Assembly (NCBI GenBank): GCA_963675755.2
Contig: CAXXMD010000003.1
Coordinates: 1,664,001-1,728,000 of the forward strand
Origin: a bacterium
GTDB taxonomy: Bacteria; Zhuqueibacterota; Zhuqueibacteria; Residuimicrobiales; Krinioviventaceae
Length of the DNA: 64,000 nucleotides
Reading direction: 5' to 3'
Position 1 is the stretch's first letter, and every line of letters starts with the position of its first letter. Under the pieces are notes generated by a model, which was given only the letters and a program-made list of their open reading frames with translations, made no database searches and was not told the origin of the DNA. Shown piece after piece: positions 6,371-64,000 of the stretch. Both the position numbers and the translations under genes were made by a program.

Positions 6371-6376
6371 TTCAAG

Positions 6377-6407
6377 GGCCGCTGTTAATCAACAGCGGCC
6401 TTTTTTT
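6377..6407 (+). terminator. Rho-independent terminator
   Basis: ggccgctgtt-aatc-aacagcggcc followed by T7. Confidence 0.88.
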
Positions 6408-6527
6408 ATTTATAAACAGTTTTCCCTCAAGATGTTGTATTTCCTGTCGATACATATATAATAACCTGGTCTTTTATTGTACATATCCTGAAAATTAATC
6501 TGAAAAATCACAAACGGAAAAGGACGC

Positions 6528-6977
6528 ATGATGAAGAAATTGTCTATCATATTATCTATATTGTTTTTGTTTTCAACCTTGGTTATAGCTCATGATTCAA
6601 CCTCGCCCAATGTTCAAGTGCTGGTAAAATCAACAAAAAGCTGGGATGGCCAGGAACTGCCCAATTATGAGACCGGAAAGCCCGAGATCACCGTATTAAA
6701 AATTACCATTCCGCCACACTCGGAACTACCTGTGCACAAACATCCCATCATCAATGTGGGCGTATTGACTAAAGGTAAACTCACTGTTGTAACCAATGAA
6801 AATGAGACATTATACCTTGAAGAGGGATCACCAATTATTGAAGTGGTAGACAAGTGGCATTATGGTAAGAATGAGTCTGATGATCCGGCAGAGATCATTG
6901 TGTTTTACGCAGGTGTTAAAGAGAAACCTTTGAGCGAATATGCCCCGGTTGAAATTGAGGAACTTGAAGCTCACTAG
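6528..6977 (+). CDS. Secreted cupin domain protein
   Basis: Signal peptide; cupin motifs LPVHKHP and EVVDKWHYGKN. Confidence 0.85.
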   Translation: MMKKLSIILSILFLFSTLVIAHDSTSPNVQVLVKSTKSWDGQELPNYETGKPEITVLKITIPPHSELPVHKHPIINVGVLTKGKLTVVTNENETLYLEEGSPIIEVVDKWHYGKNESDDPAEIIVFYAGVKEKPLSEYAPVEIEELEAH

Positions 6978-13581: not shown

Positions 13582-13617
13582 AAACAAGCCCGGTCTTTCA
13601 TGACCGGGCTTGTTTTT
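13582..13617 (+). terminator. Rho-independent terminator after glnS
   Basis: aaacaagcccggtc-tttcat-gaccgggcttgttt, then T-run. Confidence 0.85.
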
Positions 13618-13626
13618 AGGCTGCTT

Positions 13627-21933: not shown

Positions 21934-22980
21934 TTATAACGTTGACATTTCCTGATTATCAAAATTTTTTCTATAATAGGTCATATAATCCACTTTTCGT
22001 TCCAGTGCTTGAATCGTTGCATGAGAAAAATTCACGTTTTCAAATTTTTGTGCACTTCCCAGTCCACCAGGACTGAAAACGTTAATTTCCATTAATTTAT
22101 CTCCAACAATATCCAGACCAACCATAAACATTCCATCCTGAACCAGTTTAGGGCGAACAATTTCTGCCAGTTTAAAGTGTTCGTCTGTAAGTTCTGCCTT
22201 TCTCAATTTTCCACCGGCGTGAATATTACTTCGAATATCATCACCTGTTCGAACTCGTCTGAAAGCAGCGTATTTGCCTTTATAGCGAAACGGAACACCA
22301 TTCATCAAAAACAATCTTGTATCACCATCGACAGCTGCTGGCAAATATTCCTGTGCAATGACATAACCATCGCGGGTAACAGCATCAACCATTTGGTTAA
22401 GATTGCCAAGATCGTCTTTACGTACAATAAATACATTTGCACCACCGGAACCTTGTAATGGTTTTAAGACAATACTTCCACCAAGATCTTTAGCAAAGCT
22501 TTTTATTTCAGACCGATCACGTGTAATTAATGTTTTTGGACGAACTTCTTCAGGGAAAAGTTGAAAATACATTTTATTCATAGCTTTTGCAAGACCATTA
22601 GGATCATTTAAAACAATTACTCCATGGCGCATAGCAGCACGACCAAAAATAATTCCAGATTGCTGTGCCCATGAGCGCATGCCTGTGTCTGTTGAAGGAT
22701 CACTGCGCAGCATTAAAACATCCAAATCATCAACTGTAATTCGCTCTGTTCTGGCTTCTTTACCTTGTAAATGCCGGAGATATGTTTCAGACGATTTATA
22801 TTGTGATTTAGGTGTTGAGCGTGCCCTGGCATGGATCTTTTCATCTATATCGTACGCAAAGTCACCAGCACCAATCACCCATGCTTCATGGCCTCTGTTA
22901 ATAGCAGCCATAGCTAAACGGGTTGTAGTATAGCCGGGTTCTTCTGTTTTGATATCATTTACAACAAAACCAATTCTCAT
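21934..22980 (-). CDS. Glutathione synthetase-like ATP-grasp ligase
   Basis: LDVLMLRSDP, VLKPLQGSGG, QEYLP..GDTR, IRSNIHAGG, GLDIVGDKLMEINVFSPGG. Confidence 0.88.
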   Translation of the reverse strand: MRIGFVVNDIKTEEPGYTTTRLAMAAINRGHEAWVIGAGDFAYDIDEKIHARARSTPKSQYKSSETYLRHLQGKEARTERITVDDLDVLMLRSDPSTDTGMRSWAQQSGIIFGRAAMRHGVIVLNDPNGLAKAMNKMYFQLFPEEVRPKTLITRDRSEIKSFAKDLGGSIVLKPLQGSGGANVFIVRKDDLGNLNQMVDAVTRDGYVIAQEYLPAAVDGDTRLFLMNGVPFRYKGKYAAFRRVRTGDDIRSNIHAGGKLRKAELTDEHFKLAEIVRPKLVQDGMFMVGLDIVGDKLMEINVFSPGGLGSAQKFENVNFSHATIQALERKVDYMTYYRKNFDNQEMSTL

Positions 22981-22985
22981 TCTAT

Positions 22986-24917
22986 TTATCCTCCAATTAA
23001 ATTTATGACCAACATTCCATCTTTTAATTTTTTTAATTTTTCTTTTGCCAGATCGTTTTCGAGATAGCGCGGCCGAAGAGGAATAGGATGTAATACTTTA
23101 CGTAATTGTAATTCTTTAATAATTTCAACGTGTTCAAGGCCAATTTTGCCAACAAATAATGGATCTAGCTCTTTATGTTTTTTTAAATAGTTTAATAATT
23201 TTACCAATCCCCTCAAGTATACAATATCCTTTGTCAGTCCTCCAGCGCGATAAATTCGAGTTGTGATAATAAATGAAGTTCGTTGTGTAAATCCATAGTC
23301 ATGATTTAGAATTCGAAAGGTATCAATGAATGTAGCATTGTTTATCATATGATATGCGGCTATAACTCTACCGGCGAGAATTCTAAATCGCATTTTATTT
23401 AAGCCTCCGGCAAAATATTCCGCCAGTACTGCAATGCCTTCCTGTAACTCTTCATATCCTGTTAGACCGCAATATAATAATTTAAAAGGTTGTGAACGGC
23501 CATTAAAATATGTTAAAATATGAGTTCCAATTTCATGCTGTAAAAGGGCATTACAACGTGTTACTGGAATTGCAACTTTTGGGCTTATCAGTAAGTTGCC
23601 ACGCGACACCATTAATCCAACGGTATCATTGCGTATTTGAACTGTAGAAGTTATTTGAGAATTAAATTGACGATAATATTCAATCTCCTGTTTTGCATAT
23701 TCTGCAAATTTAGTTGCATTCAGAAAACCATCAGCGGATTTCTCGTGACTATGAGGCGGGATAGCATGTAACAAATCTTCGGCTAATTGTAATAGGTCTT
23801 CATCAACTACACCATAAAGTTGAAGACTGCCATAAAAAAAAGATTTGCTGTCGCGATCTGTTAACATAGACAAATGTCTATCAATTTCTCTTCGTTTTTC
23901 ATAAAATATGTTAGCCAGTGTAGGGTCTTCTATTCGTCCAATTTGAATATCATGTAGTTTGTATTTTAACCGAGAGGGATCTATAGATCTGGGTCGGTAA
24001 TAAAATACTGGAGATTTATTGAATCGGTTTTTTTGAAACGCCCTAAATGCAGCTTCAGTATTTACCGGTGTTGAAAGTAAAAGAAAATCATAAAGACTGC
24101 TAATTTCTGCAAGTTTTGTATCAACGTCCCAAACCGCCTTAACAACCGCTCGCCTACCAAGTGATTGGTAATGATAGGGACGCATATTGGTTTGATTGAA
24201 GGAGAATTCAAACAGTGCTTTTTTTAAAGCCCGGGAAACACCCTGGTGTAATTTTCTGAGAATTAAAGGGTAAACTTGTCCGGTTTCGGGATTACGAAAA
24301 ACTGGTTTTACCTCTAATCCAAAAATAAAACAGTCAAGCTTTCTGGCAGTAAATTCGGATATTATATTATTAAATCCTCTCGGTTCATATTTTTTATCAT
24401 AAACGATTTCTACTGATGCGGGCTGTCTGTTAATTTGAATTCTTTTTAATGCTTCTTCAAAAACTTCAATTGATCGGGTTGGTGGATGATCTGGTGAGGT
24501 AATAATGCGAAAAAAAGGTTTAAAAAAATCCGGATTGTCTGTTGTTATTGTCTGCTCATCCGGATTTGTCCAGATTTCAATAATTAAAAATCCGTTGCAT
24601 TTTTTGGAAAGGGTTTCTACAATTGTTTTAACAAGTTTTATAAGAGTTAACTTGTATTTTGGCCGTCCTGGGGCAATCAAATATGAAGCCTCGCCCTTTA
24701 CAAGTACGTCCGTTCCAGTATCCGTTTTATTGACGGGTCTTCGATATACTATTAAAAAGGGCAATGTACGATCAATATGCAAACGACCATTCATTGGCAA
24801 AGTACGTCTGACAATTTTTCCCTGGTCTAGGCGACTCCTGATCGATTCTATAAAATAAGAAGAAATGTTGTTATCTATGGGCTTTTTGCTCTTTATTGAT
24901 TTTATTCCTTTTTTCAT
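22986..24917 (-). CDS. QEGLA-motif / DUF1704 zinc metallopeptidase (MATCAP-like)
   Basis: HEIGTH (HExxxH), LQEGIAVLAEY, RIYRAGGLTKDIVYLRG. Confidence 0.88.
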   Translation of the reverse strand: MKKGIKSIKSKKPIDNNISSYFIESIRSRLDQGKIVRRTLPMNGRLHIDRTLPFLIVYRRPVNKTDTGTDVLVKGEASYLIAPGRPKYKLTLIKLVKTIVETLSKKCNGFLIIEIWTNPDEQTITTDNPDFFKPFFRIITSPDHPPTRSIEVFEEALKRIQINRQPASVEIVYDKKYEPRGFNNIISEFTARKLDCFIFGLEVKPVFRNPETGQVYPLILRKLHQGVSRALKKALFEFSFNQTNMRPYHYQSLGRRAVVKAVWDVDTKLAEISSLYDFLLLSTPVNTEAAFRAFQKNRFNKSPVFYYRPRSIDPSRLKYKLHDIQIGRIEDPTLANIFYEKRREIDRHLSMLTDRDSKSFFYGSLQLYGVVDEDLLQLAEDLLHAIPPHSHEKSADGFLNATKFAEYAKQEIEYYRQFNSQITSTVQIRNDTVGLMVSRGNLLISPKVAIPVTRCNALLQHEIGTHILTYFNGRSQPFKLLYCGLTGYEELQEGIAVLAEYFAGGLNKMRFRILAGRVIAAYHMINNATFIDTFRILNHDYGFTQRTSFIITTRIYRAGGLTKDIVYLRGLVKLLNYLKKHKELDPLFVGKIGLEHVEIIKELQLRKVLHPIPLRPRYLENDLAKEKLKKLKDGMLVINLIGG

Positions 24918-24929
24918 CTGGCATATACC

Positions 24930-25718
24930 TTAAAAAGATAATTCTGTCAGAATATCAATCACTCCCGTAACTGTAGATTCAAGAGCATTTCGTATTGTTT
25001 TCAATTGTATATTATCAATTTCGCCTGTCCACTCGTTCATAAAGAATTTTTTAAATTCAATAGACAATACACAAGCCGAATCAGGAAAGTTTTCATGACT
25101 CCAGCGAGCGAAATGCCCCCCCTTAAATTTTATATTCTCACGCACATCAAGATTTCTTCCTAAATAATCATATGATTTTAAATCATAAATAAATCGGTCA
25201 ATGATTGATGACCATTTTTTACGCTCCATAGTACCTGTCCCAATATTTACTTCTGGATTATATGCAGGATCAGCGGCAGATTTATCCATTCCATCTCTAT
25301 AATGATTATAGGAGTGGAGATCATACACAACAAATTTTTTATATCGGTGCTGCATTTCGTTGAAAAGATGAAAAATTGTTTTGTAAAAGTCATCATAGAT
25401 CCGCAGTGATTTATTTATTTGATCTTGGGAAGGTTTTTCTCCCCAGACGTTTAATCCCCAGGAATCCTCGGGCTCCAGATATACAGCCTTATGACGAGGA
25501 CGATTTAAATCAAGCTCAAAACGGGAATGTGATGCGATTATTTGTGTTTCAGCAATTTTTGTAAAAAAAGATGTGTAAGGATCTTCTTCCCGCTGACGAT
25601 CTTTCTCATTCAATACCATCAACTCAACAAGTTCTTTTCGAATATCATGTCCGTCATGAATTGCAGCAGCAACAAACGGTTTGCTTCCCACGGTTATGTT
25701 CCAATAAGCAGTATTAAT
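24930..25718 (-). CDS. N-formylglutamate amidohydrolase family protein
   Basis: AAAIHDGH, REEDPYT, SRFELDLNRP, YDLHSYNH, ENIKFKGG, SIEFKKFFM; start GTG 25691 or more likely ATT 25718 (AGGAGG 6 nt upstream). Confidence 0.85.
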   Translation of the reverse strand: MNTAYWNITVGSKPFVAAAIHDGHDIRKELVELMVLNEKDRQREEDPYTSFFTKIAETQIIASHSRFELDLNRPRHKAVYLEPEDSWGLNVWGEKPSQDQINKSLRIYDDFYKTIFHLFNEMQHRYKKFVVYDLHSYNHYRDGMDKSAADPAYNPEVNIGTGTMERKKWSSIIDRFIYDLKSYDYLGRNLDVRENIKFKGGHFARWSHENFPDSACVLSIEFKKFFMNEWTGEIDNIQLKTIRNALESTVTGVIDILTELSF

Positions 25719-32452: not shown

Positions 32453-35400
32453 TTATTTTAAAAGTATCATTTTTTTAACATCTAAAAAATCCCCAGCCTT
32501 GATTTTAACAAAATATAAACCATTTGAATAGTTTGTTGCATCCCAGTGTGTTTTATAATGACCCCCATGTTTGTAACAAGATAAAAGTACTTTTACTAAT
32601 TGTCCATTACTGTTGTAAATAGAGAGCTCAACAAATTCCGATTTTGGTAAATCAAAACTGATATGTGTAACCGGATTAAAGGGGTTGGGATAATTTTGAT
32701 ATAAACCAAAGGATTTGGGTAATAGAGTGTTGTCGTCAAGACCAGTTGTAGTATTTACGACAATTAATTTCTTTTTAACCATTGAGTCAATGTTATCTAA
32801 ACCCGAGATTTCAAGAGAGACCGTAAAAGTGTCCGTTTTTTCAAATGTATGAGAAGGGTTTTGTAGCCTGCTGGAGAATCCATCACCAAAGTCCCAAAGC
32901 CAGGATTTTACTGTACCCTTTGAGGTGTCTTGAAATTTTGCAGGAAACGGTAAAGTACCACCGGTTGTATCAACAGTAAAATCTGCAATTAATGATTGTA
33001 ATGGTACAGAACCTGTGTTTTGACTATTAAATTGATATTCCGGCCATTGGCCTCTACTTTGCGTGTTTGTTTGAAGAGCGTGTACTATACCTTCTGAAGT
33101 TATAAAAACAAGTAAACCCTTATTGTTGATAGCGGCAGATGTCGATATTTCCCCCTCGGTTTGATAAGAAAATAGCTCCTCCCCTTGTGGATTGATGGAA
33201 TAAAAAATCCCATCAACAGTTCCAAAATATATATTCCCTTCTTCATCAATAACAGGAGGAGTTTTTATAAATCTTTCTGTGTCAAAAACCCATCTTGTTG
33301 TCCCATCGGGATTCAAAGATAAAAGTCTGCCAGTAAAGTTATTGTTGAATATTCCAATGTAGAGTGTTCCATCTGCTGCTATTACAGGCATTGTAAATGA
33401 ATCCAGATAAAAAGCATAATCCCAATAAAGAGTGCCATCTGGATTTAAAGCTATGAGTTTATTATAACTATTTCTATTATAAACATATTTAAGGCAATAA
33501 TATATGGTTCCATCTGCACCAATGGTTGGTGGATGAGAAAATGACACGAATTCTTTAATTCCTTTGTTCCATTTTAAAGAACCATCAGAAGAAAGGGCAT
33601 ATAATTTATCATTTTTACAACTAAAATAAATTGAACCGTCTTTCGCCAATGCGGGAGTTGATTCAAGATTGTGTAAGATGGGTGATTGCCATTTTAAATT
33701 TCCATCGCTGGTAAGGCAATAAAAATTTTTATCATTAGAACCGAAATATATCAAGCTGTCAGGCCCAACTAAAGGAGAAGTCTCAATGTTGCCTCTAGTT
33801 AAATATGACCATTTTTCAGTTCCATCTTGATTTAAAGCATATAAATTATTGTCGTTCGTACCAAAAAATATTGTTCCATCATGTCCAATTGCAGCAGAAG
33901 CAGTAACAAATCCGCCCACATTTTTTGTCCATTTTACGGTACCATCTTCATTTAATGTTATAATACGTTCATCAGGATATGAGCCGTTACCACCAAAATA
34001 TGTTATAGAATTATCATTGTTTATGACAGGAGCTGTGACAACTTTTAATCCTGTTTCATACTTCCATTCCAGATTATTATAAAATAAAGTAATGGTTTCT
34101 GAACTTTTATGGTTTTGGTTGTCTGATACAGTTAATCCTACAAGATAATTACCATATTTTTTATTTGTAAAAGAAACGTTTATAGTACTTGAAGTCGAGT
34201 CGACAAGCTTTATTGAACTCCCTTGAGGTTGTTGTACAATTCGCCATAAATACGATAATTCACCACCATTGGAATTTATTGAACTCCTCCCATCCAAGGT
34301 AAATTCTTCACCATTTTTAACCAGTATCGTATCTTGAGTTAGTATTGCTTTTGGATTGTTGATCAATTCACCACAACCTGTATTTTGATTGTTTCTCATA
34401 AAAGTTGGCCAATTACTTGCCAGTAATCCCTTACTGCTACTCGACAAGGCATAATTGGTATTGCTCAAAGTCCTAAAATATAATGTTCCATTATCTCCTA
34501 TTAAGGGGCTGCTTATAATACTACTATCTGCTTCAAATGTCCACCGTGTTGAACCATCTGGATTCAGAGCGTACAAAATATTTTTTGAAGAACCAAAATA
34601 TATCGTGCTATCGGAGCCTAATGTTATTTGATTTTGGATTATTCCATCTGTTTCAAAGGTCCATTTTAACAACCCGTTGTTGTTTAAGACATTTAATAAT
34701 CCTTTTGCTCGATCAACAAAATATACTGAACCCTCTAAATCAATAACCGGGGGAATAAAAATACCTTGTTCTATGAAATATGACCATTTAATCGAACCAT
34801 CCGGATTTAATGCATAAAGATAGTTATTAAAAGAGCCAACATATAGAGTACCATCTTTTCCTATTGCTGGTGTTAGCAATTTCCCTTGATTCGAAAAAGA
34901 CCATTTTTCATTTCCATCGGAATTAAATGCAAGCAATAGGTAGTTTTCAGATATACAATAAATACTTCCATCAGTTCCAATAACAAATGATGTCAAGTTT
35001 ACATAATTTGTAGTTTTGTCCCATTTTAAAGATCCATCAGAATTTATTGCATAAATATTACCATTAGTAGAACCAAAATATAATGTTCCATCATTAGATT
35101 GAGCAAGGGTTGAAAGTATCATGCTATTTGTATGAAAGGACCATTTTTCAGTAAAATCTGTATTTAGAGCAAGTATATCATAACCATTTACAATGTAAAT
35201 TGTTTCATTGTTACCAATTAATAGATTCTGGTAACTTTCCATATTTTCAGATGAATAAATTTTATTACCATCACTATCTAAAACAAAAAAGCCTTCATCC
35301 AGGCTGCATAGATAAAGATTTCCATTAGTATCTAAAATGGGTGATAATGTTTGGTAATTACCACAATTATATTCCCATTTGACAGTCCCTTCTTGAGAGA

Positions 35401-35455
35401 ATATCTGGATTGAAAATAGTAAAATGAATAAACAAAACTTGAAAAAAGTATTCAT
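32453..35455 (-). CDS. Secreted protein with two PQQ-like beta-propellers, PKD-like domains and a T9SS-type CTD
   Basis: Many IGxDGTLYxG..LYALNPDGSxKW repeats in two blocks, SWLWDFGDG..QNPSHTF PKD, NYPNPFNP CTD. Confidence 0.88.
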   Translation of the reverse strand: MNTFFKFCLFILLFSIQIFSQEGTVKWEYNCGNYQTLSPILDTNGNLYLCSLDEGFFVLDSDGNKIYSSENMESYQNLLIGNNETIYIVNGYDILALNTDFTEKWSFHTNSMILSTLAQSNDGTLYFGSTNGNIYAINSDGSLKWDKTTNYVNLTSFVIGTDGSIYCISENYLLLAFNSDGNEKWSFSNQGKLLTPAIGKDGTLYVGSFNNYLYALNPDGSIKWSYFIEQGIFIPPVIDLEGSVYFVDRAKGLLNVLNNNGLLKWTFETDGIIQNQITLGSDSTIYFGSSKNILYALNPDGSTRWTFEADSSIISSPLIGDNGTLYFRTLSNTNYALSSSSKGLLASNWPTFMRNNQNTGCGELINNPKAILTQDTILVKNGEEFTLDGRSSINSNGGELSYLWRIVQQPQGSSIKLVDSTSSTINVSFTNKKYGNYLVGLTVSDNQNHKSSETITLFYNNLEWKYETGLKVVTAPVINNDNSITYFGGNGSYPDERIITLNEDGTVKWTKNVGGFVTASAAIGHDGTIFFGTNDNNLYALNQDGTEKWSYLTRGNIETSPLVGPDSLIYFGSNDKNFYCLTSDGNLKWQSPILHNLESTPALAKDGSIYFSCKNDKLYALSSDGSLKWNKGIKEFVSFSHPPTIGADGTIYYCLKYVYNRNSYNKLIALNPDGTLYWDYAFYLDSFTMPVIAADGTLYIGIFNNNFTGRLLSLNPDGTTRWVFDTERFIKTPPVIDEEGNIYFGTVDGIFYSINPQGEELFSYQTEGEISTSAAINNKGLLVFITSEGIVHALQTNTQSRGQWPEYQFNSQNTGSVPLQSLIADFTVDTTGGTLPFPAKFQDTSKGTVKSWLWDFGDGFSSRLQNPSHTFEKTDTFTVSLEISGLDNIDSMVKKKLIVVNTTTGLDDNTLLPKSFGLYQNYPNPFNPVTHISFDLPKSEFVELSIYNSNGQLVKVLLSCYKHGGHYKTHWDATNYSNGLYFVKIKAGDFLDVKKMILLK

Positions 35456-40706: not shown

Positions 40707-42131
40707 ATGGAGGGTATGATGAAACACTCATCAACCATACCAGTCCTGATTATAACCCTGATTCTGATCGGAACGATGCTGGTTCCGGGTTTTTCGGCAA
40801 CAACCGATACACTGAGAGTTACAGACAGTTACGGGTTACCGGGTCAGGCAGGTACTTTTGCTATAGTACTTTCAAACACGACGACAATTAAGGGTTTGTA
40901 TTTTACCCTTACGGACTTTCCAGATTCTTTATCGGTAACCGATGTTGCTTTAACAACAAAGTCTGCCAACTTTCGGGTAGATACTACACAAGCTGATGGA
41001 ACATTAAAAGTATTAATGCTTCCCGTTGATCCTGCTGGAACATTGCTTGTACCTAAGACAAATGCAACTGGTGACACAATTTTGATGGTCACTGTAGATG
41101 TTGCTGATGGTGCAACCGGTGGAACAACAGCAAACATGACTTTGAATAATGTTAAAATGGCAAACGGGACAAATGGCGTAATGACCTTTATTAAAGATAA
41201 TGGAAAATTTTGGTTTGGTAAAAAATTGGATGTTATCTATAACGGTGTAGTAGATTTGTTTGACGTTTTGCGTATTGTTGACATTGCACTTGATCGTGGT
41301 GACCCACCCACTTCTTATGAACTTTGGGCAGCCGATTGGGATGATGACGGTTTAATTACCGTTGTTGATATTGGTGAAGCCATGGACCAGGCAGTTGCTC
41401 CTTCTTCTGCCAGAGTAACTCCATTGAGCAAATCTGCCGGCAGTGTAAAAGTTTCTTTACCTGCATTGCCTGCCAACTTTGTAGGTAAAATTGATGTACC
41501 CGTTACTGTCAATACTTCAGCAGCATTACATGGTTTACAGTTTGAGCTCGAGATGGAATCTGATAATTATGTTGTTGGATCACCCAGCACAACAAGTGCT
41601 TCTTCAGGTATGAGTATTGTCAGTAGAAAAGCTGGAAAAAAATTAAATGTAATTATGTGTGGCCTTGAAGGACAATCCGTGTCTATGGGTGAATCAACAG
41701 TTATGACAATTCCTGTTACAATCCGCAAGGCTTTGAATGAAACATCTACAATTTCTATCAATAACGCAATTGCTGGTTCTGCCAATGGAACTGCTCTGCA
41801 GACCATGACCGGACAAAGCTCTGATGTTTCTATTGTTCCTCAAACATTTGCTTTGCATCAGAACAGCCCGAATCCGTTCAATATGAACACAACAATTACT
41901 TTTGATGTGCCAAGCCTTGAAAATGGCTCAGTACCCGTTAAAATGGAAATCTTTAACACCCGTGGTCAGTTGGTAAAAACACTGGTAGATCATAGCAAGT
42001 CAGCTGGTCGTTATACTGTTCATTGGAATGGTTCTGACGATTATGGCAGAGAAGTTTCTTCAGGTGTTTATTTTTACAGATTTTCAGCCAGAGACGTGGT
42101 CTTGACTAAAAAACTGGCAATCATGAAATAA
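40707..42131 (+). CDS. Secreted cohesin-dockerin-cohesin protein with T9SS-type CTD
   Basis: Cohesin-like IKGLYFTL and LHGLQFEL domains; dockerin repeats DVIYNGVVDLFD and DWDDDGLITVVD; NSPNPFN...SSGVYFYR CTD; true start may be 40716 or 40719. Confidence 0.75.
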   Translation: MEGMMKHSSTIPVLIITLILIGTMLVPGFSATTDTLRVTDSYGLPGQAGTFAIVLSNTTTIKGLYFTLTDFPDSLSVTDVALTTKSANFRVDTTQADGTLKVLMLPVDPAGTLLVPKTNATGDTILMVTVDVADGATGGTTANMTLNNVKMANGTNGVMTFIKDNGKFWFGKKLDVIYNGVVDLFDVLRIVDIALDRGDPPTSYELWAADWDDDGLITVVDIGEAMDQAVAPSSARVTPLSKSAGSVKVSLPALPANFVGKIDVPVTVNTSAALHGLQFELEMESDNYVVGSPSTTSASSGMSIVSRKAGKKLNVIMCGLEGQSVSMGESTVMTIPVTIRKALNETSTISINNAIAGSANGTALQTMTGQSSDVSIVPQTFALHQNSPNPFNMNTTITFDVPSLENGSVPVKMEIFNTRGQLVKTLVDHSKSAGRYTVHWNGSDDYGREVSSGVYFYRFSARDVVLTKKLAIMK

Positions 42132-42182: not shown

Positions 42183-43967
42183 ATGAGAATTAAATCCATT
42201 TTCTCGATCATGCTCGTCATCCTGCTTGGCGCATCTATATTGCCTTTGGGTGCTGTCACCATAGTGGATGATTTTAACCGGGCTTCATTAGGATCAAACT
42301 GGTCTGCTGATCCCGAATATGCTATTGTAAGTAATACATTGTCAAACACTTCAACCGTTGGTTCCTGGGAATATGTTGCTGTATATACAGCCCAGGCAAG
42401 TCCTTCTGAAGTATCTATGACATTTGCTTCTACCGCTACAACAGCAGGTGCAAACGCATCTGGTCTTTGTATGTTCTTGTCTTCTTCAAACGTATCAAAT
42501 GCTGAAGGTTACATGGTAATGCGTCGTAATGAATACCTGTACCTGCTTCCTGTTGTAAATGGTGATGTAATTCGCGAGACTGAAATTGCCAAAGTTACAG
42601 CTACACTTACTTCACCAACTGCTGGTGACAAGATTACGGTTGCTGCATCATCTGACGCTAGCGGTTACCACTTTGATTTTTATATCAATGGTAATTTAGA
42701 CGGTCGTGTTACGGATGCCGGCAAATTGTACGGAAACAGCTATTTCTATTATTCCGGTGTTGCTCTTTTTGGTAATTCAAGCAATAATGTTGATGATTTT
42801 ACACTCCGTGCAGAAACAATCGATGTTACTTCACCTTCAGGTGGAGAAGTTTGGTTGGTTGGTTCTACTGAAACTATTTCCTGGGATATTTCCGAATTTT
42901 CTGATGATGTTCAGATTGAATATTCTACAGATAGCGGCGCAACCTGGAACGATATTGTTTCTTCTACAACCAATACCGGTACATATGCATGGACTATTCC
43001 TAATGCTCCCTCTGAGAACTGTCTTGTAAGAGTTTCTGATGCTGCTGATGGTGTTCCGTGGGGCATTAGTACAGCTACTTTCCAAATTACCGCAGAAGTT
43101 CAAACAGTAACGGTTACCAGTCCTAACGGTGGCGAAACATGGGCATCAAGCTCTGTTCATGAAATTACCTGGACCTCTGAAGGTACAATTGCAAATGTTG
43201 CAATCTCTTATTCAACTGATAGCGGAGCCAACTGGAGCTCTATTGTTGCCAGCACACCGAATGATGGTAGCTACTCTTGGACAGTTCCAACAGTTACTAC
43301 TGCTGCAGCGTTAATCAGGGTTCAAGATACTGATGCAACCCCAACTGATCAGAGTGATGCAGTATTTAATATTTCATCTTCTCAGGTTGTATTGTCAGTA
43401 CAGAGCGGTAGTGGTGAACAAGATGAAGATGTAACAATCAATGTTTTGCTTGAAAACCAGGTTCCTATTCGTGGTGTATTGTTCCGTTTGACAGACACTC
43501 CTAACGAATTGACTGCAACAGATGTGCTTGGTGTTGGCCGTGCATCTACTTTTGATGTAACTTTTGATGAATCTGGAACTTATGTACAGGTTCTGATAGC
43601 CAATACAACATCATTTACTTCTATTGCTGCAGGCTCAGGCGCTATTGCTCAAATTAATTTCCACATTGATGCTGGTGTTACTTATGGTACAACATCATCT
43701 TTGACTTTTTCAAATGTAGCATTGTCTGATGACAACAACCAGGCCGTTGTTCCTTCACTGGTTTCCGGTTTGTTCCATTACGTTCTTACCGGTGATATTG
43801 TACCTACTGGTACTGTTGACAACGATGATATCGATCGTATGGCTGAAATCATTTTGGGAACCGGAGATCCGGCGACTGATATTGAACGTTTGGCTGGTGA
43901 TATTGATCAGGACGGTGACATTGATGTTTACGATGCGCTTGCAGTAGTAGATTTGGCTAATCCATAA
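42183..43967 (+). CDS. Secreted protein: lectin-like domain, two Ser/Thr-rich Ig-like repeats, cohesin, C-terminal dockerin; no CTD
   Basis: DDFNRASLGSNW; two VTSPxGGExW..YSTDSGAxW repeats; IRGVLFRLTD cohesin; GDIVPTGTVDNDD and GDIDQDGDIDVYD dockerin. Confidence 0.75.
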   Translation: MRIKSIFSIMLVILLGASILPLGAVTIVDDFNRASLGSNWSADPEYAIVSNTLSNTSTVGSWEYVAVYTAQASPSEVSMTFASTATTAGANASGLCMFLSSSNVSNAEGYMVMRRNEYLYLLPVVNGDVIRETEIAKVTATLTSPTAGDKITVAASSDASGYHFDFYINGNLDGRVTDAGKLYGNSYFYYSGVALFGNSSNNVDDFTLRAETIDVTSPSGGEVWLVGSTETISWDISEFSDDVQIEYSTDSGATWNDIVSSTTNTGTYAWTIPNAPSENCLVRVSDAADGVPWGISTATFQITAEVQTVTVTSPNGGETWASSSVHEITWTSEGTIANVAISYSTDSGANWSSIVASTPNDGSYSWTVPTVTTAAALIRVQDTDATPTDQSDAVFNISSSQVVLSVQSGSGEQDEDVTINVLLENQVPIRGVLFRLTDTPNELTATDVLGVGRASTFDVTFDESGTYVQVLIANTTSFTSIAAGSGAIAQINFHIDAGVTYGTTSSLTFSNVALSDDNNQAVVPSLVSGLFHYVLTGDIVPTGTVDNDDIDRMAEIILGTGDPATDIERLAGDIDQDGDIDVYDALAVVDLANP

Positions 43968-44060: not shown

Positions 44061-44846
44061 ATGAAAGTTTACAAGATACTGATTTTATTAATGATTGCTG
44101 CAGGCAGCGTCTTTGCAGGAGTCAACTCGTTAAGTTTAAGTAACGGAAGCGGTACACCCGGAAGTGTTGGTAATTTGGTGTCACTGAATCTTACAAATGA
44201 AGATACAATACGGGGTATTCAATTCCGTTTAATAGATAATAGCGATTATTTGACAGTTGATTCTGTTTGGACAGAAAACATTCAGAGATCTCAAGTGTTC
44301 TCTTATAACTATTATTCTGAAATAAACACATCGGAAATTCTTTTATTACAAAGTAAAACCAGAACCATTGAGCCACAAACAGGTAATATTCTTTATATCA
44401 CCTATAGTGTGTCTGAGGATGCACCAGCCGGTCAGGAATATGAATTAATCTTTGAAGAGGTTACTGTTTCTGATGTTGATAATAAAAAATTACCTTACAC
44501 CCTGTCTAACAGTAGTTTTTTAATTAAAACGATTGATACAGGCATTAATGATGGTTCCAAAACCGTTACACAATTTGAACTTGCACAAAACTATCCCAAT
44601 CCGTTTAATCCCAATACACGTATTCAGTACAGTATTGCTGCTGCTGAACATGTAAAGTTGGAGATCTTTAATGCATTGGGACAAAAAGTACGCTCTCTGG
44701 TAGACCAGCCCATGCAAGCCGGAAAGTATAGTGTAATGTGGAATGGTATGAATGACAAAGGATTTCAGGTACCTTCAGGAGTATATTTTTACAGCATTCA
44801 CGCTGGAGATTTTAAAGATACTAAATCTTTAACCTTGATGAAGTAA
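44061..44846 (+). CDS. Secreted single-cohesin protein with T9SS-type CTD
   Basis: Signal peptide; IRGIQFRL cohesin-like domain; NYPNPFNP...PSGVYFY..KSLTLMK. Confidence 0.75.
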   Translation: MKVYKILILLMIAAGSVFAGVNSLSLSNGSGTPGSVGNLVSLNLTNEDTIRGIQFRLIDNSDYLTVDSVWTENIQRSQVFSYNYYSEINTSEILLLQSKTRTIEPQTGNILYITYSVSEDAPAGQEYELIFEEVTVSDVDNKKLPYTLSNSSFLIKTIDTGINDGSKTVTQFELAQNYPNPFNPNTRIQYSIAAAEHVKLEIFNALGQKVRSLVDQPMQAGKYSVMWNGMNDKGFQVPSGVYFYSIHAGDFKDTKSLTLMK

Positions 44847-51919: not shown

Positions 51920-52138
51920 GTGAAGAACAATGTCGCCCGTTCGTTTGATTTAGGCTTGCAGTTAGCTGTGGCAATAGGTCTATGTACGTACGGGGGATAT
52001 TTTTTGGACAATAAATTAAATACTATGCCCCTGTTTTTGGTCCTCGGACTTTTGTTAGGAGCAACGGCAGGGTTTTTGAATGTTTACAAAGAGGTTTTCT
52101 CAAAAGACAACAAAAATGACAGCTCTAAAAAAAAATAG
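51920..52138 (+). CDS. AtpZ/AtpI family protein
   Basis: GYFLDNKLNTMPLFLVLGLLLG; first gene of the atp operon. Confidence 0.85.
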   Translation: MKNNVARSFDLGLQLAVAIGLCTYGGYFLDNKLNTMPLFLVLGLLLGATAGFLNVYKEVFSKDNKNDSSKKK

Positions 52139-52523
52139 TGACAGCCCATCTCTAGTCTGGTTCCTATTGTTAACTTTTGTAATATTTGTGTTGGGACAGG
52201 CGGGCTTGAATTTTTTTTCTGGCATTTCTGTTTTTAAATCCGTACTTTTAGGGTATCTAACCAGCGTCGTAAGTATTATAGCGGGTTATTATTCCTTGCA
52301 ATGGGCGTTTAACAAAAACGCCAAAACATTCTATATAGTTCTTTACGGCGGTATGGCTCTTCGATTTTTATTGTTTATTGCCATCATGTTTGTTCTTTAC
52401 TTATTTTTTCCCGAGTGGTCATTAATTGCATATGTAATATCCTTTGTGGTGTTTTACGTTTTAATGCAAATTTTTGAAATTAATATTATAAATCGTGAAC
52501 TGAAAAGGAATAAATTAGTCTGA
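52116..52523 (+). CDS. atpI: ATP synthase protein I-like 4-TM protein
   Basis: Four hydrophobic segments, GMALRF, positioned before atpB. Confidence 0.65.
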   Translation: MTALKKNSDSPSLVWFLLLTFVIFVLGQAGLNFFSGISVFKSVLLGYLTSVVSIIAGYYSLQWAFNKNAKTFYIVLYGGMALRFLLFIAIMFVLYLFFPEWSLIAYVISFVVFYVLMQIFEINIINRELKRNKLV

Positions 52524-58676: not shown

Positions 58677-59081
58677 ATGGCAGAAAAACAATTTAAACTG
58701 GAAATTATTACTCCTGAAAAGGTCGTTTACTCGGCTGACGTTGAGCATGTTAAGGCGCCTGCCAAAAACGGATATTTTGGTGTCAAAGTAAACCACATTC
58801 CGTTTTTAACAGTACTTAAAATTGGCAGGGTTGAAATAACAGCTGGTAAAGAAGAACTGGTTTATGCGATTAGCGGTGGTTTTGTTGAAGTTGCAGATAA
58901 TAAGATGACCATTCTGGCAGAAACTGCTGAAGCTTCCGGTGATATTGATGTTGATCGTGCTCAAAAATCACGTGAACGTGCTCAAAAACGCCTTGATGAA
59001 AAACAAGCTGAAACCAGCATGGCAAGAGCTAATGCCTCTTTAATGAGAGCATTAAATCGTCTGGAGGTTGCTTCAAGATAA
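58677..59081 (+). CDS. atpC: F0F1 ATP synthase subunit epsilon
   Basis: EIITPE, ISGGFVEV, ILAETAE, C-terminal helices. Confidence 0.96.
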   Translation: MAEKQFKLEIITPEKVVYSADVEHVKAPAKNGYFGVKVNHIPFLTVLKIGRVEITAGKEELVYAISGGFVEVADNKMTILAETAEASGDIDVDRAQKSRERAQKRLDEKQAETSMARANASLMRALNRLEVASR

Positions 59082-59123: not shown

Positions 59124-59163
59124 AAGCGGCATTGAATTTATTTGGTGCCGCTTAATTTTTTTT
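59124..59163 (+). terminator. Terminator of the atp operon
   Basis: aagcggcatt...ggtgccgctt followed by aa and a T-run. Confidence 0.7.
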
Positions 59164-59188: not shown

Positions 59189-59217
59189 TTGCTTTTCAAT
59201 TATAAAAAAATTACTTT
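59189..59217 (+). promoter_or_regulatory. Putative sigma70-type promoter of the GldLM-like operon
   Basis: TTGCTT-N17-TACTTT. Confidence 0.4.
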
Positions 59218-59300
59218 AAAAAATTGGGCTGGGAAGTATAAAATCCTTTTTAAAATATTATGTTCACTGATACAACAAACTGTCTATATGAGGTAAAAAA

Positions 59301-60386
59301 ATGGGTAAATTAAACTCAATGTTTGGTTTGATAAAGTATGATCTTTCAAAGGACAATTTATTGAAATTGACCAGAAAAAAAGCATATTTTCATAATCCGG
59401 CTATTGCAAAAGAAGTTGTTGATATATTTGAAGAAAATATTTATAAAAAACAACGAGAAGATCATCAAAAAAGAGGGTTTTTTACCGGTTTATGGTTTCT
59501 TGTCAAGTATTTAGTGCCTTTTTTAAAGTCCCCGGAAAAAGCTGATCTGTTAAATGAAATTCAAATCCGAAAATTGCTTGAAGCTCATGGCAGTGATCAG
59601 GTTAGACTTGATATGAAAAATATCATCGATGGTTTAACCAGTGAATATAATCTTGGTGAAATGGGCAAGATTGTAGATGTTACCGCCGTTGTTAAAGTGA
59701 TCTTGCTGGTTCTTTTCCTCATGCTGGTGATACTTGTTTCCGGTTTTGGTGAAAGAATTCGCATTTTAACAGAGGTTATGAACCCAACTGCCGAAGTGTA
59801 TCTCTTTCAAACAGTAATTGGAATAACGTTTCAAGTTGTGGCAATAGCGGCATTCTTTTGGGGTATCTTTGTGATTCCTATTCGCAAGTTGGTACAATTT
59901 AGAAATAATAATTTAATGGAAAAAGATAAACGATTTAGAGAAAACTTTTTATATTCAGCTCCTACCCAGATTATGAATTTGGGTATTATTACCATGATTT
60001 TTGCAATTGTAGGTATTATTTACTTTGAAAAGAACCAACTCCTTGATATGAGTGTTTATTTTCATTGGCAGTTGTATGATATCTTTCACGCATTTAACCC
60101 AGATCAATTTTTGAATTTCTCTAAATGGGGTTTTAATATGTTGACCTTTTTGGTTGTTGCCGGTGGCTTTACCGAAGCAGCAGCTTTTTATCTGGGATAC
60201 AAATTCCCGGATAAATTTAAAACCCACGATGAAGAAAAAGAATTGAAAATTGATGAAGCTTTTGCTGACAAATTGGCTCAGGCATTAAAAGATAAACAAG
60301 TTGTAGCGGATAAGGTTGATGCAGAAATGATCGCCCAGGGTGTTCTTGATGCATTGAAAAAAGTTAATTTTATTGTTGAAAAGTAA
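59301..60386 (+). CDS. Multi-pass membrane protein with C-terminal GldL/PorL-like two-helix motor module
   Basis: ENFLYSAPTQIMNLGII and AGGFTEAAAFYLGYKFP match GldL TM1/TM2 patterns, including the intramembrane Glu (E292); gagg RBS. Confidence 0.6.
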   Translation: MGKLNSMFGLIKYDLSKDNLLKLTRKKAYFHNPAIAKEVVDIFEENIYKKQREDHQKRGFFTGLWFLVKYLVPFLKSPEKADLLNEIQIRKLLEAHGSDQVRLDMKNIIDGLTSEYNLGEMGKIVDVTAVVKVILLVLFLMLVILVSGFGERIRILTEVMNPTAEVYLFQTVIGITFQVVAIAAFFWGIFVIPIRKLVQFRNNNLMEKDKRFRENFLYSAPTQIMNLGIITMIFAIVGIIYFEKNQLLDMSVYFHWQLYDIFHAFNPDQFLNFSKWGFNMLTFLVVAGGFTEAAAFYLGYKFPDKFKTHDEEKELKIDEAFADKLAQALKDKQVVADKVDAEMIAQGVLDALKKVNFIVEK

Positions 60387-60405
60387 AAAAGTGGTAATAT
60401 AGATT

Positions 60406-62280
60406 ATGGATAGGAATCGAATAGTATTACTCTTGTATGTATTGACATTTTTAATGTCAGTATACCTCAAATTTGTTGACCCGAACAGACTTGATCCGCA
60501 CAATACTCAGGAATTGTTCAGAGAAAACAATGTGATGGATATTGGCGGTATGGCCAATGATTTCCTGCAGTATTCCTGGACGACTGAGCAATCAGATGCA
60601 GAATTTGAATATAGACTTGCCCGTCAAATTGGAGACACCCTCAGCTTTACTTCTGCAAATTTTGAGCAGGGTGCCGGTAGATACCAGATAAATTACTCAC
60701 AAACATCAAATAATTTTGACGTTCAATATATGGGGCCCTCTCAGGATAGTAATGTCTATATTCAATTTGATTCCGGGAACTATTATTTTGTGCACATTAT
60801 TGAAAAAGATGGATTCTCGAAACGTATAGTAAAAAAGCAGGATAGAAATTTTGGCTATTTGTTAGATCAAGGCATAAAGTTACTTATATTCAGTGAAATA
60901 CCATTGAATAAAGATGGAAGTGCTTTGACAATTAACTATAAATACCTGCGAAGAGGTAATGATGTACTGCCAGATTCTTCAATGATCAAGAGTGTTGAGA
61001 TTAATCTGGCAGATTCAACCTGGCAGGAATTCGATGCAGGTAACCTGGCGAGTACCTTTGGCATTGACAAATTTACTTTTGCGGTTAAATATTTAATTCC
61101 TGATTCTCTTCATGGTGCTCGTGGAAATTATCTGGATGTTATTACAGAGAAGAAGCGCAAAAGATTAAATCTGAACAATCCAGGTCAGGAACCCAATGTA
61201 TTTACAGTTTCCGAAGAGATTGTAAACAAGTTTAAAATATTACACCCGCCCGAAAATTATGTTGAGAAATTAAATACCCCTGTAGGTATGCCATTTAAAC
61301 AGGTTATTTCGGCAAACTTTCCGGTTGAATACATTACCTTGTATATTGATAACAAGGAAGTTTTAAATAATGAATCTATAACGAATATTCAACTTGGAAA
61401 CAGGGAAGCACTTAAAAACAGCATTTTTGTTACGCCTACAAATAATTACCAGGTTTTTGATCTTGAATTTCCAATCACTACAAACCGTAACTTGAATGGA
61501 TTTTCTAGTCTTCAGGTTCCAATTCGGTTGGTTGCAAGATCAGGTATGTCTGTTGATGAACGAAACTGGCTGATTGAAGTTATACCCTTCCGTTTCCAGG
61601 TATGGCCGCCTATTCGCCCCATGTTTCAAAGTGAGCTAGATGATCCTGGCAACCAATTTACTGATGAAAAAGAATTGTTTGAAAGATTTATAAAAAAGTA
61701 TCCTGATGAAGAGAGTTATATCAAAGATTCTCCGGCAAATCAGGCTAAATATCCAATAGTTTATGAATCGAGACCGGTGAACTTTTTCTATTCCTTACAG
61801 AATGTAAATGCAAATCATATCCGGAATTGTGTAGTTAATGGAAATCAATCACCCAGGAATCAACTGGGTAATGTAAAATATTCTATTGATGCTGATGTGC
61901 GCAATCTGAATTTGCGGGTAAATACAAATACGAACCATTATAAACAAATTCAGTTTTATGTTGCCCAGGTACCGGATGATTATCGCATCAACATTAAAGA
62001 TAATGACTATGTTGCTTCAACAACCTTTGTAACTTTTTATCTTCACGACTTTTTTGGTGACCCCATAAAGTCTATATTGGAATTTAATGTACGTCCATTT
62101 AAAGCTACGTATGCTAACCCGGCAACATCAGAAACACAGTTTGTTTTTAATACAAAATTTTCACCAGGCTCTATTGTGAACATTGATGGTTTGAGAGTGA
62201 ATGTACCATATTCTAAACAACCGATCTCTTTAAACAGTCAAAACAGACAATTAATCATTCGTCAATTAGGTGTAGATTGA
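60406..62280 (+). CDS. Single-pass membrane protein with large periplasmic domain, GldM/PorM-like N-terminal helix
   Basis: MDRNRIVLLLYVLTFLM has the R-x7-Y-x5-M pattern of the GldM TM helix; 624 aa, beta-rich remainder. Confidence 0.5.
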   Translation: MDRNRIVLLLYVLTFLMSVYLKFVDPNRLDPHNTQELFRENNVMDIGGMANDFLQYSWTTEQSDAEFEYRLARQIGDTLSFTSANFEQGAGRYQINYSQTSNNFDVQYMGPSQDSNVYIQFDSGNYYFVHIIEKDGFSKRIVKKQDRNFGYLLDQGIKLLIFSEIPLNKDGSALTINYKYLRRGNDVLPDSSMIKSVEINLADSTWQEFDAGNLASTFGIDKFTFAVKYLIPDSLHGARGNYLDVITEKKRKRLNLNNPGQEPNVFTVSEEIVNKFKILHPPENYVEKLNTPVGMPFKQVISANFPVEYITLYIDNKEVLNNESITNIQLGNREALKNSIFVTPTNNYQVFDLEFPITTNRNLNGFSSLQVPIRLVARSGMSVDERNWLIEVIPFRFQVWPPIRPMFQSELDDPGNQFTDEKELFERFIKKYPDEESYIKDSPANQAKYPIVYESRPVNFFYSLQNVNANHIRNCVVNGNQSPRNQLGNVKYSIDADVRNLNLRVNTNTNHYKQIQFYVAQVPDDYRINIKDNDYVASTTFVTFYLHDFFGDPIKSILEFNVRPFKATYANPATSETQFVFNTKFSPGSIVNIDGLRVNVPYSKQPISLNSQNRQLIIRQLGVD

Positions 62281-62317
62281 GAAATAGAATAAAGAATAGA
62301 AATAATTCGGAGATGTC

Positions 62318-64000
62318 ATGAAAGGTAAATTTACGTGTTTGATTTTGGTTTTATTGGTGTTCGTTTCTATTGTTTTTTCACAGACAAATGAAGAAGCTGA
62401 TAACATCCGAACTTACATAACCACGCCAAGAGATTATGAAACTAATCCGCAGGTGTTTCAGGACTTTATCAATACATTGAGAGAAGTAATTAACGACCCC
62501 AATGATGCATCGCGGGCTACATGGGAAAGTCCCATGACATTGATTGATAATGTGGGTATTCTTGTTAATTACAATTCTACAGAAAACCGTTTAAAGATTG
62601 AATCGATCTATATAGATGATAATACGCCAACAAACATCGAGATCGATATTTCAAAATTTTTGAATTCAATTAATGCCCCCAGTGACAACTATATGGGTGC
62701 TATTGATTCTTATATTCAATCATCGGGCTTGGTATTCAGAAGAGCTTCTTCAATCTCAATACCTATTACCCAACTGGAAGAAGATATTACATCTTCGGAT
62801 TACGCGGGCCTCTGGTCAAAACGAAAAAATGCTGAAGAGTTTAATACCCTTCTCGATGTACTGGTTCAGATCAGCTCTGACGTGGAAGCAAAGGTTGACT
62901 CTATTGATGCTATAAAAATTCTTTATACAAATTCCGGTCGAGATAATTCTCCTGCGGTTAAAGCAATACAGGTAGGTTACATTGAGCGCGACCAGTTTGT
63001 TAAAATCCACACATTACCTGCGGAACAGTTTATTAATGATTTGAGCAAGATTGACATTTCATCAAATAAAGAGCCTTCATTACCCAAATATATTTTCCAA
63101 CAATATTTCTGGGATGAAGAAGGAGAGATGCCAAATAATCTGCCAGATAATTGGAGTTTTGGTGTGAATTTGAAAAAGACACCATCCGGAAAATACTCCA
63201 AAGAGATTACAGTTTATCGCAATGGGTCTCAGGCAGTATTACAAAACGATGAATTACGTATGCAGCGCCTGGAACGTAAAACAAAATTAAACTTTACAGA
63301 TATTGCTAACAAGATTATTGATATTGCTGTTTCAGCGGCAGTAGATAAAGAACAAGCCAGTTTTGTTTCAGCTCGCTTGTACATGAATTATGATATGGAA
63401 CTCGAAACCAATAAACTGGACAGAATAGAGTATTCCATACAGTCAAACAATTTTCAGGTATTGTCATCACATGAAAATCATAATGATTTAGGTAATTATT
63501 ATGTTGCTTCTCTGTTTGGTTTGGTACCTTTGTCCAATACCGTTAGACCCGGACAAAAACATATCGAACCTGCTCAGGTAGATGGTAGCCAGATAGGCGT
63601 AGTTGAGTCAATGGAATCTTATGCATTCCCCAAGGCGGAAAATGCTTATCCTGTAACATTGAGTGTAGACGAGCTGAATTTTCAATTCTCTTTATTGAAT
63701 CAGCGTTTCAAATTAGGTACAGAGTTCGGTCAGGACGAGTTTAATTATCCGTTTGTATGGTCTGGAAGTATGGCCTATTATTTTGAATGGAATTTTAATG
63801 AAGTTCCACCTATCACCTGGCTGGTTGATGATATTCGGGTCAGTTATAGACCGTATAATTATGCAAACAGAACTTTGATCAATTTTGTTGATTATAAATT
63901 GGACAATCGTTTTTTTGAAAAGAATGAAGGCGATGCAAGACTTGCAATCAATAACATTCAATTTGTATTGAACAAGAGTTGGGACTATAACGCAATAAAT
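62318..64000 (+). CDS. Large secreted hypothetical protein, 3' end beyond window (absent from ORF track)
   Basis: ATG 62318 after ggag; MKGKFTCLILVLLVFVSIVFS-QTNEE signal peptide; my translation is open for 561 codons to the window end. Confidence 0.8.
   Translation, partial: MKGKFTCLILVLLVFVSIVFSQTNEEADNIRTYITTPRDYETNPQVFQDFINTLREVINDPNDASRATWESPMTLIDNVGILVNYNSTENRLKIESIYIDDNTPTNIEIDISKFLNSINAPSDNYMGAIDSYIQSSGLVFRRASSISIPITQLEEDITSSDYAGLWSKRKNAEEFNTLLDVLVQISSDVEAKVDSIDAIKILYTNSGRDNSPAVKAIQVGYIERDQFVKIHTLPAEQFINDLSKIDISSNKEPSLPKYIFQQYFWDEEGEMPNNLPDNWSFGVNLKKTPSGKYSKEITVYRNGSQAVLQNDELRMQRLERKTKLNFTDIANKIIDIAVSAAVDKEQASFVSARLYMNYDMELETNKLDRIEYSIQSNNFQVLSSHENHNDLGNYYVASLFGLVPLSNTVRPGQKHIEPAQVDGSQIGVVESMESYAFPKAENAYPVTLSVDELNFQFSLLNQRFKLGTEFGQDEFNYPFVWSGSMAYYFEWNFNEVPPITWLVDDIRVSYRPYNYANRTLINFVDYKLDNRFFEKNEGDARLAINNIQFVLNKSWDYNAIN

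Follow-up and report, generated by a model that had tools for sequence, protein, structure and literature searches.

A rare three-gene module behind an ATP synthase operon in candidate division KSB1: a possible envelope-spanning machine of an undescribed family

The DNA analyzed here (the window) is a stretch of 64,000 nucleotides from contig CAXXMD010000003.1 of the assembly GCA_963675755.2 of an uncultured KSB1 bacterium (positions 1,664,001 to 1,728,000; G000:C3:1664001-1728000 in our numbering). The source genome has 6.48 Mb in three contigs and is 98% complete. Three genes on the + strand, called g1, g2, and g3 here, lie downstream of the ATP synthase operon and encode a predicted four-helix membrane protein, a single-pass membrane protein with a long periplasmic part, and a secreted protein. 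The order of the genes, their co-occurrence, the pattern of their conservation, and the topology of the products were established. The reading that we prefer, tentatively and with a confidence somewhat short of even, is that the trio may form a rare envelope-spanning machine of an undescribed family, in which ion flow through a membrane core would be coupled to work at the outer membrane. The trio is not what generally drives type IX secretion in KSB1. As a motor, it would represent a new family within a known kind of machine, and otherwise it is a new envelope complex; it is rare either way.

Conservation within the trio was concentrated in its membrane-spanning parts. Alignments were made of 16 g1, 8 g2, and 5 g3 sequences. 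For g1 (59301-60386, +; 361 residues), mean pairwise identity among the 16 sequences reached 0.66 in membrane helix 3 (residues 219-243, positions 59955-60029, +), the most conserved stretch of the protein, and 0.55 in helix 4 together with the motif F-P-[DE] (residues 277-304, positions 60129-60212, +), while every other region was at 0.21-0.40. For g2 (60406-62280, +; 624 residues), the first 25 residues, which hold the membrane helix (positions 60406-60480, +), had a mean identity of 0.61 among the eight sequences, as against 0.20-0.37 in the periplasmic regions. The invariant residues of g1 were F185, P221, M225, G228, I233, I236, G238, I239, L281, G288, E292, A295, F296, G299, and P303, and those of g2, found in all eight sequences, were R3, I6, L10, Y11, F15, L16, Y20, K22, and F23. 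The original prediction had named g1 E292 (codon 60174-60176) and g2 R3 and Y11 as the residues whose conservation should be checked, and all three were retained throughout (16/16 and 8/8 sequences, respectively). When the invariant residues of g2 were counted by angle, they were distributed over all faces of the helix, which is what would be expected if the helix is buried in protein and is not a lipid anchor. No Asp or Glu was present at columns 6-24 of the helix in any of the eight sequences. Since conservation peaks in g1 helices 3 and 4 and in the g2 helix, these three membrane helices appear to be the functional heart of the module.

The structure of g1 was predicted with AlphaFold2 (mean predicted local distance difference test score, pLDDT, 60.5). 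The model has an N-terminal, cytoplasmic helical domain (approximately residues 1-120), a feature of the long g1 forms, four membrane helices (approximately residues 127-148, 166-192, 220-242, and 277-300), and a C-terminal tail of about 60 residues. By hydropathy, three segments of the g1 in the window and four of a short relative exceeded the threshold. Seven Lys and Arg residues are in the loop that joins helices 2 and 3 and two in each other loop, a distribution that fits a topology with both termini in the cytoplasm. E292 is located within helix 4, about eight residues from its cytoplasmic end. With this topology, E292 would lie at a depth similar to that of g2 Y11, with R3 within reach, and the acid and the Arg/Tyr pair would all be near the cytoplasmic face of the membrane.

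The membrane helix of g2 spans residues 3-24 in the AlphaFold2 model (mean pLDDT 65.5) and residues 6-24 by hydropathy, and R3 and Y11 are both in this N-terminal stretch. The remaining approximately 600 residues contain no second hydrophobic segment. After the helix, the model is all-beta, with an immunoglobulin (Ig)-like sandwich at approximately residues 265-400 (pLDDT 85-90) and short helices at residues 420-440; the last approximately 70 residues were poorly modelled (pLDDT <50).

The third gene, g3, starts at 62318 (+) and is open at the window end (64000); the full protein has 749 residues, and its stop codon is at the window-equivalent position 64567. The protein begins with a signal-like hydrophobic segment. 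Its N-terminal half is variable, and its C-terminal part of about 300 residues is conserved and rich in aromatic residues, with a content of Phe, Trp, and Tyr of 20% as against 9% in the N-terminal part. At the C-terminus, three of the five orthologues have hydrophobic residues in alternation and a final Tyr. When the last 310 residues were compared with other proteins by a language model, the nearest named look-alikes were NfrA_C, DUF1207, DUF6850, and BcsS (scores 0.88-0.90), which we take to be outer-membrane barrels; the top three matches (0.93-0.94) were unnamed, and resemblance of this kind is to be read as a lead only. The C-terminal region of g3 may thus be an outer-membrane barrel. 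F-S-Q closes the signal-like segment in four of the five orthologues, and secreted proteins of the Bacteroidota group typically have a Gln following the cleavage site. The original description of the products, as a polytopic protein with an intramembrane Glu, a single-pass protein, and a secreted protein, agreed with the models, the hydropathy analysis, and the signal-like segment.

In the arrangement that we tentatively propose, g1 would be a four-helix protein of the inner membrane, and the membrane helix of g2 would pack on g1 helices 3 and 4, the three helices making up the functional core. The periplasmic arm of g2, approximately 600 residues of beta-sandwich domains, would reach the outer membrane, where the secreted g3 with its probable C-terminal barrel would be located. 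Proton or ion flow through the core would drive a conformational or rotary movement of g2, which would do work on g3. We consider ion flow that drives g2 the most likely mode of action because of the buried, invariant acid E292 and the residues R3, Y11, Y20, and K22 of g2. GldLM, ExbBD-TonB, and TolQRA work on this principle, ion flow driving the movement of a periplasmic arm.

Several points weigh against this proposal. The sequences were few (16, 8, and 5) and many of them close kin, so that "invariant" refers to a small sample. The confidence of the AlphaFold2 models was modest for both g1 and g2 (mean pLDDT 60.5 and 65.5), a buried Glu-Arg pair can equally be purely structural, and the evidence for the g3 barrel consists of the look-alikes, the aromatic content, and the C-terminal motif only. 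Strand alternation in the C-terminal part of g3 was not significant (0.10 of windows vs 0.068 ± 0.027 in shuffles). Sequence, profile, and fold searches gave no likeness to known ion-driven motors. An alternative is a passive module that spans the envelope, in which g1 and g2 form a static anchor, g2 and g3 act as a tether, a scaffold, or a conduit (serving, for example, a surface structure or lipid or protein traffic), and the Glu-Arg pair stabilizes packing only. The anatomy and the co-occurrence of the genes fit such a module too, and no search returned a motor signature. Against it stands the finding that the strongest constraint falls on the membrane helices and their ionizable residues and not on the periplasmic parts, which is not proof. 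Conserved membrane helices with ionizable residues are typical of energy-transducing cores such as MotAB, ExbBD, and GldLM. We consider the passive module rather doubtful, if still a serious contender.

A narrower form of the energized machine is also conceivable, in which g1 and g2 would be a further, independent family of ion-driven motors of the 5:2 kind, rotary or working by power strokes, that combines a MotA-like four-helix plan with a GldLM-like charge logic, the acid being on the ring subunit and the Arg and Tyr on the axle helix. The beta-domain axle would be hard-wired to g3 as a dedicated outer-membrane partner, and the whole would be self-contained and capable of moving between genomes. 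This reading is unlikely. A complex of g1 (residues 118-310) and g2 (residues 1-70) was predicted at 4:2 stoichiometry and scored 0.01 against a mark of 0.32, a result that is uninformative in either direction.

All three proteins fell outside the known families, as the original prediction had anticipated for standard profiles. Pfam gave no match for g1, g2, or g3 at E ≤ 1, and NCBIfam gave noise only, far under the cut-offs. None of the seven proteins scanned with PADLOC and none of the four scanned against PHROGs was matched. PDB sequences searched with three profiles yielded nothing relevant, no relative was found in viral contigs, and the top score of g1 in the protein atlas (0.78) was uninformative. 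No paralogues of the trio were found in its own genome. In a word-based homologue search of 5.8 billion proteins, g1 had five relatives, g2 had one besides itself, and g3 had one (98% identical). A HMMER profile search of 1.84 billion representative proteins retrieved ten relatives of g1 at E ≤ 0.001, five of them at E ≤ 1e-30; four of the ten were short (230-246 residues) and shared with g1 only the four-helix core. Eight of the ten were scanned against Pfam, and none of these contained a Pfam family.

Fold searches were likewise negative. With the g1 model, the best match of the VIA fold search (48,161 chains) was a designed helical bundle at Z 7.5, and ZorA (Z 6.1) and MotA (Z 6.0) were within noise for helical models. 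The structural similarity to GldL that was to be checked with Foldseek did not appear: the best E-value was 0.4, and no GldL or PorL chain was among the matches listed. The g2 model retrieved generic strings of Ig or macroglobulin-type domains, with no GldM or PorM among the matches listed; TM-scores were 0.10-0.20 among the 50 listed (0.13-0.15 in the top five), and Z reached 8.6 over residues 273-394. No publication on the trio gene set was found, and none was found that combines KSB1 with type IX secretion; the papers listed from a broader search did not mention KSB1.

The distribution of the trio was analyzed in 167 KSB1 genomes from 100 genera, 105 of them of high quality; the tallies include two unpublished genomes (G158 and G162), both of which were matched by SprA and neither of which is among the listed trio genomes. 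The profiles of g1, g2, and g3 each matched the same five genomes (5/167; 5/105 of the high-quality genomes; 2/100 genera). With the 16-sequence g1 profile, seven of the 167 genomes were matched at E ≤ 0.01. Five of these were the trio genomes (E ≤ 1e-124), and the other two matches were marginal (E 0.002, with six stops inside the match, and E 0.008) and were regarded as noise. The order of the genes was conserved in four other KSB1 genomes and in metagenome contigs, which indicates that the genes are real. Three of the genomes (G081, G082, and G083) have the atp operon, g1, g2, g3, and aspS in the same order as the window; in other genera of the same family, atpC is followed by different genes.

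Most of the trio occurrences found sit behind ATP synthase genes. On a metagenome contig of 6.9 kb (L040), the three genes occur in the same order (g1 in the short form, 248 residues; g2, 621 residues; g3, 870 residues) and are flanked by a DDE transposase fragment (1-294, −) and an rve-type integrase gene (6116-6892, +). This contig has no atp genes and no type IX gene in view along its 6.9 kb. The trio on L040 shows that the genes travel together and that adjacency to the ATP synthase is not essential; the trio may be mobile. On three further contigs (L041, L043, and L044), g1 is followed by g2 as far as the contigs extend, and the g1 of L043 has 327 residues.

This patchy and rare distribution, with transposase genes around the L040 copy and no paralogues in the genome, would also be consistent with three separate, co-transcribed envelope proteins that form no single complex and were perhaps gained jointly on a mobile cassette; examples would be a small channel or permease for g1, a protein for periplasmic binding or adhesion for g2, and a porin of the outer membrane for g3. 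Three-way co-occurrence and a fixed order across sequences that are merely 20-30% identical speak against separate roles, and the extreme conservation of the g2 helix is hard to square with a mere anchor. This explanation is improbable. The G+C content of the trio was 33-37%, that of the genome 39.5%, and the third-position G+C resembled that of the neighbours, so base composition gave no clear sign of a recent transfer.

The original prediction took g1 and g2 for a GldL/GldM (PorL/PorM) motor in remodelled form that would power the export of C-terminal domain (CTD) proteins or another envelope machine; what was weighed here is a motor for type IX secretion of these proteins or for gliding. 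In Bacteroidota, type IX secretion and gliding are driven by the proton-powered 5:2 motor GldLM/PorLM. The lineage was correctly placed outside the Bacteroidota, as the relatives belong to candidate division KSB1. The genome does have components of type IX secretion. SprA scored 518 bits, over the cut-off, and a PorV-like gene scored 240 bits against a cut-off of 250 (an open reading frame, ORF, of 957 residues adjoins it). Within the window, CTD proteins with Por_Secre_tail are encoded at 32456-35455 (−) and 44061-44843 (+). In the data set of the TXSScan preprint, Bacteroidetes are reported as the only group with complete type IX systems.

Some side observations were made on these components. 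The SprA of the genome is divided between two overlapping ORFs (C3:1879310-1881247, 645 residues, and 1881241-1885596, 1451 residues). In a sister genome (G085), SprA is a single frame of 2107 residues, and the split in the window's genome (G000) is a frameshift or an assembly error. Counting Por_Secre_tail and FlgD_ig-like C-terminal domains together, such domains are found on the secreted proteins at 32456-35455 (−), 44061-44843 (+), 13600-14829 (+), and 40707-42128 (+). Among these proteins are one beta-propeller/PKD protein of 1000 residues and cohesin-domain proteins at 42183-43964 and 44061-44843.

Profiles of the Gld proteins did not connect the trio to this system. The GldL profile (TIGR03513) gave no row for g1 at E ≤ 1 and none for five short relatives at E ≤ 10; across the genome, its best score was 12.7 bits, located elsewhere, against a cut-off of 68.3. 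The GldM profiles (TIGR03517, PF12081, and PF12080) gave no rows for g2 and no match in the whole genome at E ≤ 1. GldN was not matched in the genome, and the control genomes gave no match either; the control genomes contained no positive control for the GldL, GldM, and GldN searches. The best GldK score in the genome was 110 bits against a cut-off of 350. The absence of a gldK before the trio, noted originally, was upheld, since no gldK-like or gldN-like gene was found flanking the trio. A canonical gldKLMN set was not found elsewhere in the genome either, GldL, GldM, and GldN being unmatched in searches without a positive control and GldK being under its cut-off. GldL was over the cut-off in none of the 167 KSB1 genomes, again in a search without a positive control. 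The lone weak GldL match in the phylum (G026, 24 bits) was an unrelated, enzyme-like ORF of 300 residues and was rejected.

SprA was over the cut-off in 163 of the 167 KSB1 genomes and was matched in all 105 high-quality genomes. A motor that serves SprA should track SprA, and the trio (5/167) does not, so the co-occurrence that had been proposed as a check went against a type IX role; at least about 158 SprA-bearing KSB1 genomes have no trio. A type IX motor would gain from the presence of SprA, the PorV-like gene, and the CTD proteins in a genome in which GldL, GldM, and GldN are unmatched and GldK is under its cut-off, and from the order of a multi-pass followed by a single-pass gene with an acid and an Arg/Tyr pair placed as in GldL E49 and GldM R9/Y17. 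In a study of the GldLM motor, GldM R9 is functionally important and capable of a salt bridge to E49 of GldL, and Y17 is invariant and stands eight residues from R9 in the helix (10.1101/2020.05.11.089193). The trio shares with GldLM the order of its genes, the position of the acid, and the Arg-Tyr spacing. Against the type IX motor, g1 is a four-helix protein whose tail is short, the g2 model is without a helical first domain, no profile, PDB-sequence, or fold link was obtained, no gldK or gldN flanks the trio, and no type IX gene is in view on the 6.9-kb contig L040, where the trio lies between transposase genes. On balance, a type IX motor is very improbable.

Membership of g1 and g2 in the MotA/ExbB/TolQ and MotB/ExbD/TolR families, as highly divergent representatives, was considered as well. 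The genome has six PF01618 loci over the cut-off, a flagellar motAB pair among them, and g1 is not one of these. The four helices of g1, with both termini in the cytoplasm and the last two helices most conserved, match a MotA-like plan, and the fold search listed MotA and ZorA at Z 6.0-6.1. When the g1 family was aligned with four ExbB/MotA genes of the genome by hhalign, the probability was 0.5% (E 0.12) over 11 columns; the single aligned stretch, a point in favour of membership, paired G-G-x-x-E-A around E292 with the last ExbB helix. Local hhalign runs of g1 against MotA/ExbB gave ≤0.3%. The low hhalign probabilities count against membership, as does the failure of PF01618 to match g1; Z values of about 6 are within noise when the top match, at 7.5, is a designed bundle. 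The helix of MotB/ExbD/TolR is defined by a conserved Asp, whereas the g2 helix has no acidic residue. Divergent members of these families are thus a most unlikely identity for the pair. As a side observation, a MotA gene (PF01618) in the region G000:C2:1041990-1045707 adjoins ORFs that appear to encode MotB and a protein of the flagellar hook. From these genes, the organism is probably flagellated and would thus possess one or more classical ion-driven motors in addition to its four to five genes of the ExbB/TolQ type.

The surroundings of the trio fit a single unit. The ATP synthase subunit genes upstream of g1 were assigned by reading the translations; the last of them, atpC, is at 58677-59081. 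A terminator-like hairpin with a 13-pair stem followed by a T run (59124-59153, +) lies 3′ of atpC and separates the atp operon from the trio. The intergenic distances are 19 nt (g1-g2) and 37 nt (g2-g3). The set of three + strand genes behind an atp terminator, with these gaps, was therefore found as first described, both in the ORF list and in the hairpin. A second terminator-like hairpin (11 pairs) lies 56 nt past the g3 stop in the extended locus (L002), and the hairpins on both sides bracket g1-g2-g3 as one unit. Downstream of the second hairpin is an ORF of 587 residues, read as a putative aspS. A weak sigma-70-like promoter match was located at 59215-59244 (+; TTTAAA, 18 nt, TAAAAT; 9/12 matches). 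The promoter that had been suggested upstream of g1 did not stand out, as promoter-like sites were no commoner than chance (27 in the scan vs 24.5 ± 4.5 in shuffles).

Two other places in the window were noted. At 51920-52523 (+), directly 5′ of the gene for the a-subunit of ATP synthase, two small hydrophobic ORFs that overlap (72 and 147 residues) may be AtpZ/AtpI-like. At 21937-25691 (−), an N-formylglutamate amidohydrolase-like gene, a gene for a MATCAP (tyrosine carboxypeptidase) protein of 643 residues, and a glutathione-synthetase-type ATP-grasp gene may form a set for peptide ligation and trimming.

To our knowledge, few families turn ion flow at the inner membrane into work in the envelope, namely MotAB, ExbBD/TolQR, GldLM, ZorAB, and AglRQS. 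An unassigned module of three genes would be a cheap and compact candidate for a new ion-driven family, with no paralogues and with short forms of g1 (230-250 residues). The rarity of the trio gives it small ecological weight. A possibly weightier observation is that KSB1 genomes are nearly all SprA-positive, with a recognizable GldL in 0 of 167; the trio is not a general energizer of type IX secretion there.

When the envelope-spanning machine that we prefer is compared with known systems, Zorya (ZorAB), with the other non-flagellar 5:2 motors of accessory gene islands, shares a rare and patchy spread, one copy of the trio lying between transposase genes, and ZorA was in the fold list (Z 6.1, within noise). 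There was no PADLOC match among the seven proteins scanned, and we know of no counterpart in Zorya to the secreted and probably outer-membrane g3 or to the long beta-domain arm. With MotAB, ExbBD, and TolQR, the trio shares a four-helix subunit with both termini in the cytoplasm and conservation highest in its last two helices, a partner that crosses the membrane once, and, as proposed here, a link between the inner membrane and a protein of the outer one. It differs from them in that no homology was detected, in the reversed charges (the multi-pass subunit bears the acid, and the single-pass helix has no Asp), and in the periplasmic arm, which is part of g2 itself and all-beta, whereas theirs is TonB or TolA.

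The differences from GldLM begin with the multi-pass subunit. In the GldLM study, GldL has two membrane helices and then a long tail, GldM has a helix at its N-terminus and is for the most part periplasmic, and the two proteins have no sequence similarity to other motors (10.1101/2020.05.11.089193), whereas g1 is a four-helix protein with a tail that has about 60 residues. The invariant residues of g1 helix 3 include no Tyr, whereas Y13 of GldL is conserved in the helix that precedes the one with the acid, a comparison between unaligned sequences. The gldK and gldN partners are absent, the third gene of the trio encodes a secreted protein of 749 residues, and across the phylum there is no co-occurrence with SprA (5/167 vs 163/167). 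The periplasmic part of GldM/PorM has three beta domains after a first domain that is helical, and the g2 model (pLDDT 65.5) is without the helical one. In both GldLM and the trio, a gene for a multi-pass protein is followed by a gene for a single-pass, mostly periplasmic protein with Ig-like domains, and the membrane core is the most conserved part. In both, an acid is found on the last helix of the multi-pass subunit near the cytoplasmic side, the equivalence of E292 and E49 being assumed for unaligned sequences, and g2 R3 and Y11 are spaced by eight residues, as are GldM R9 and Y17 in that study.

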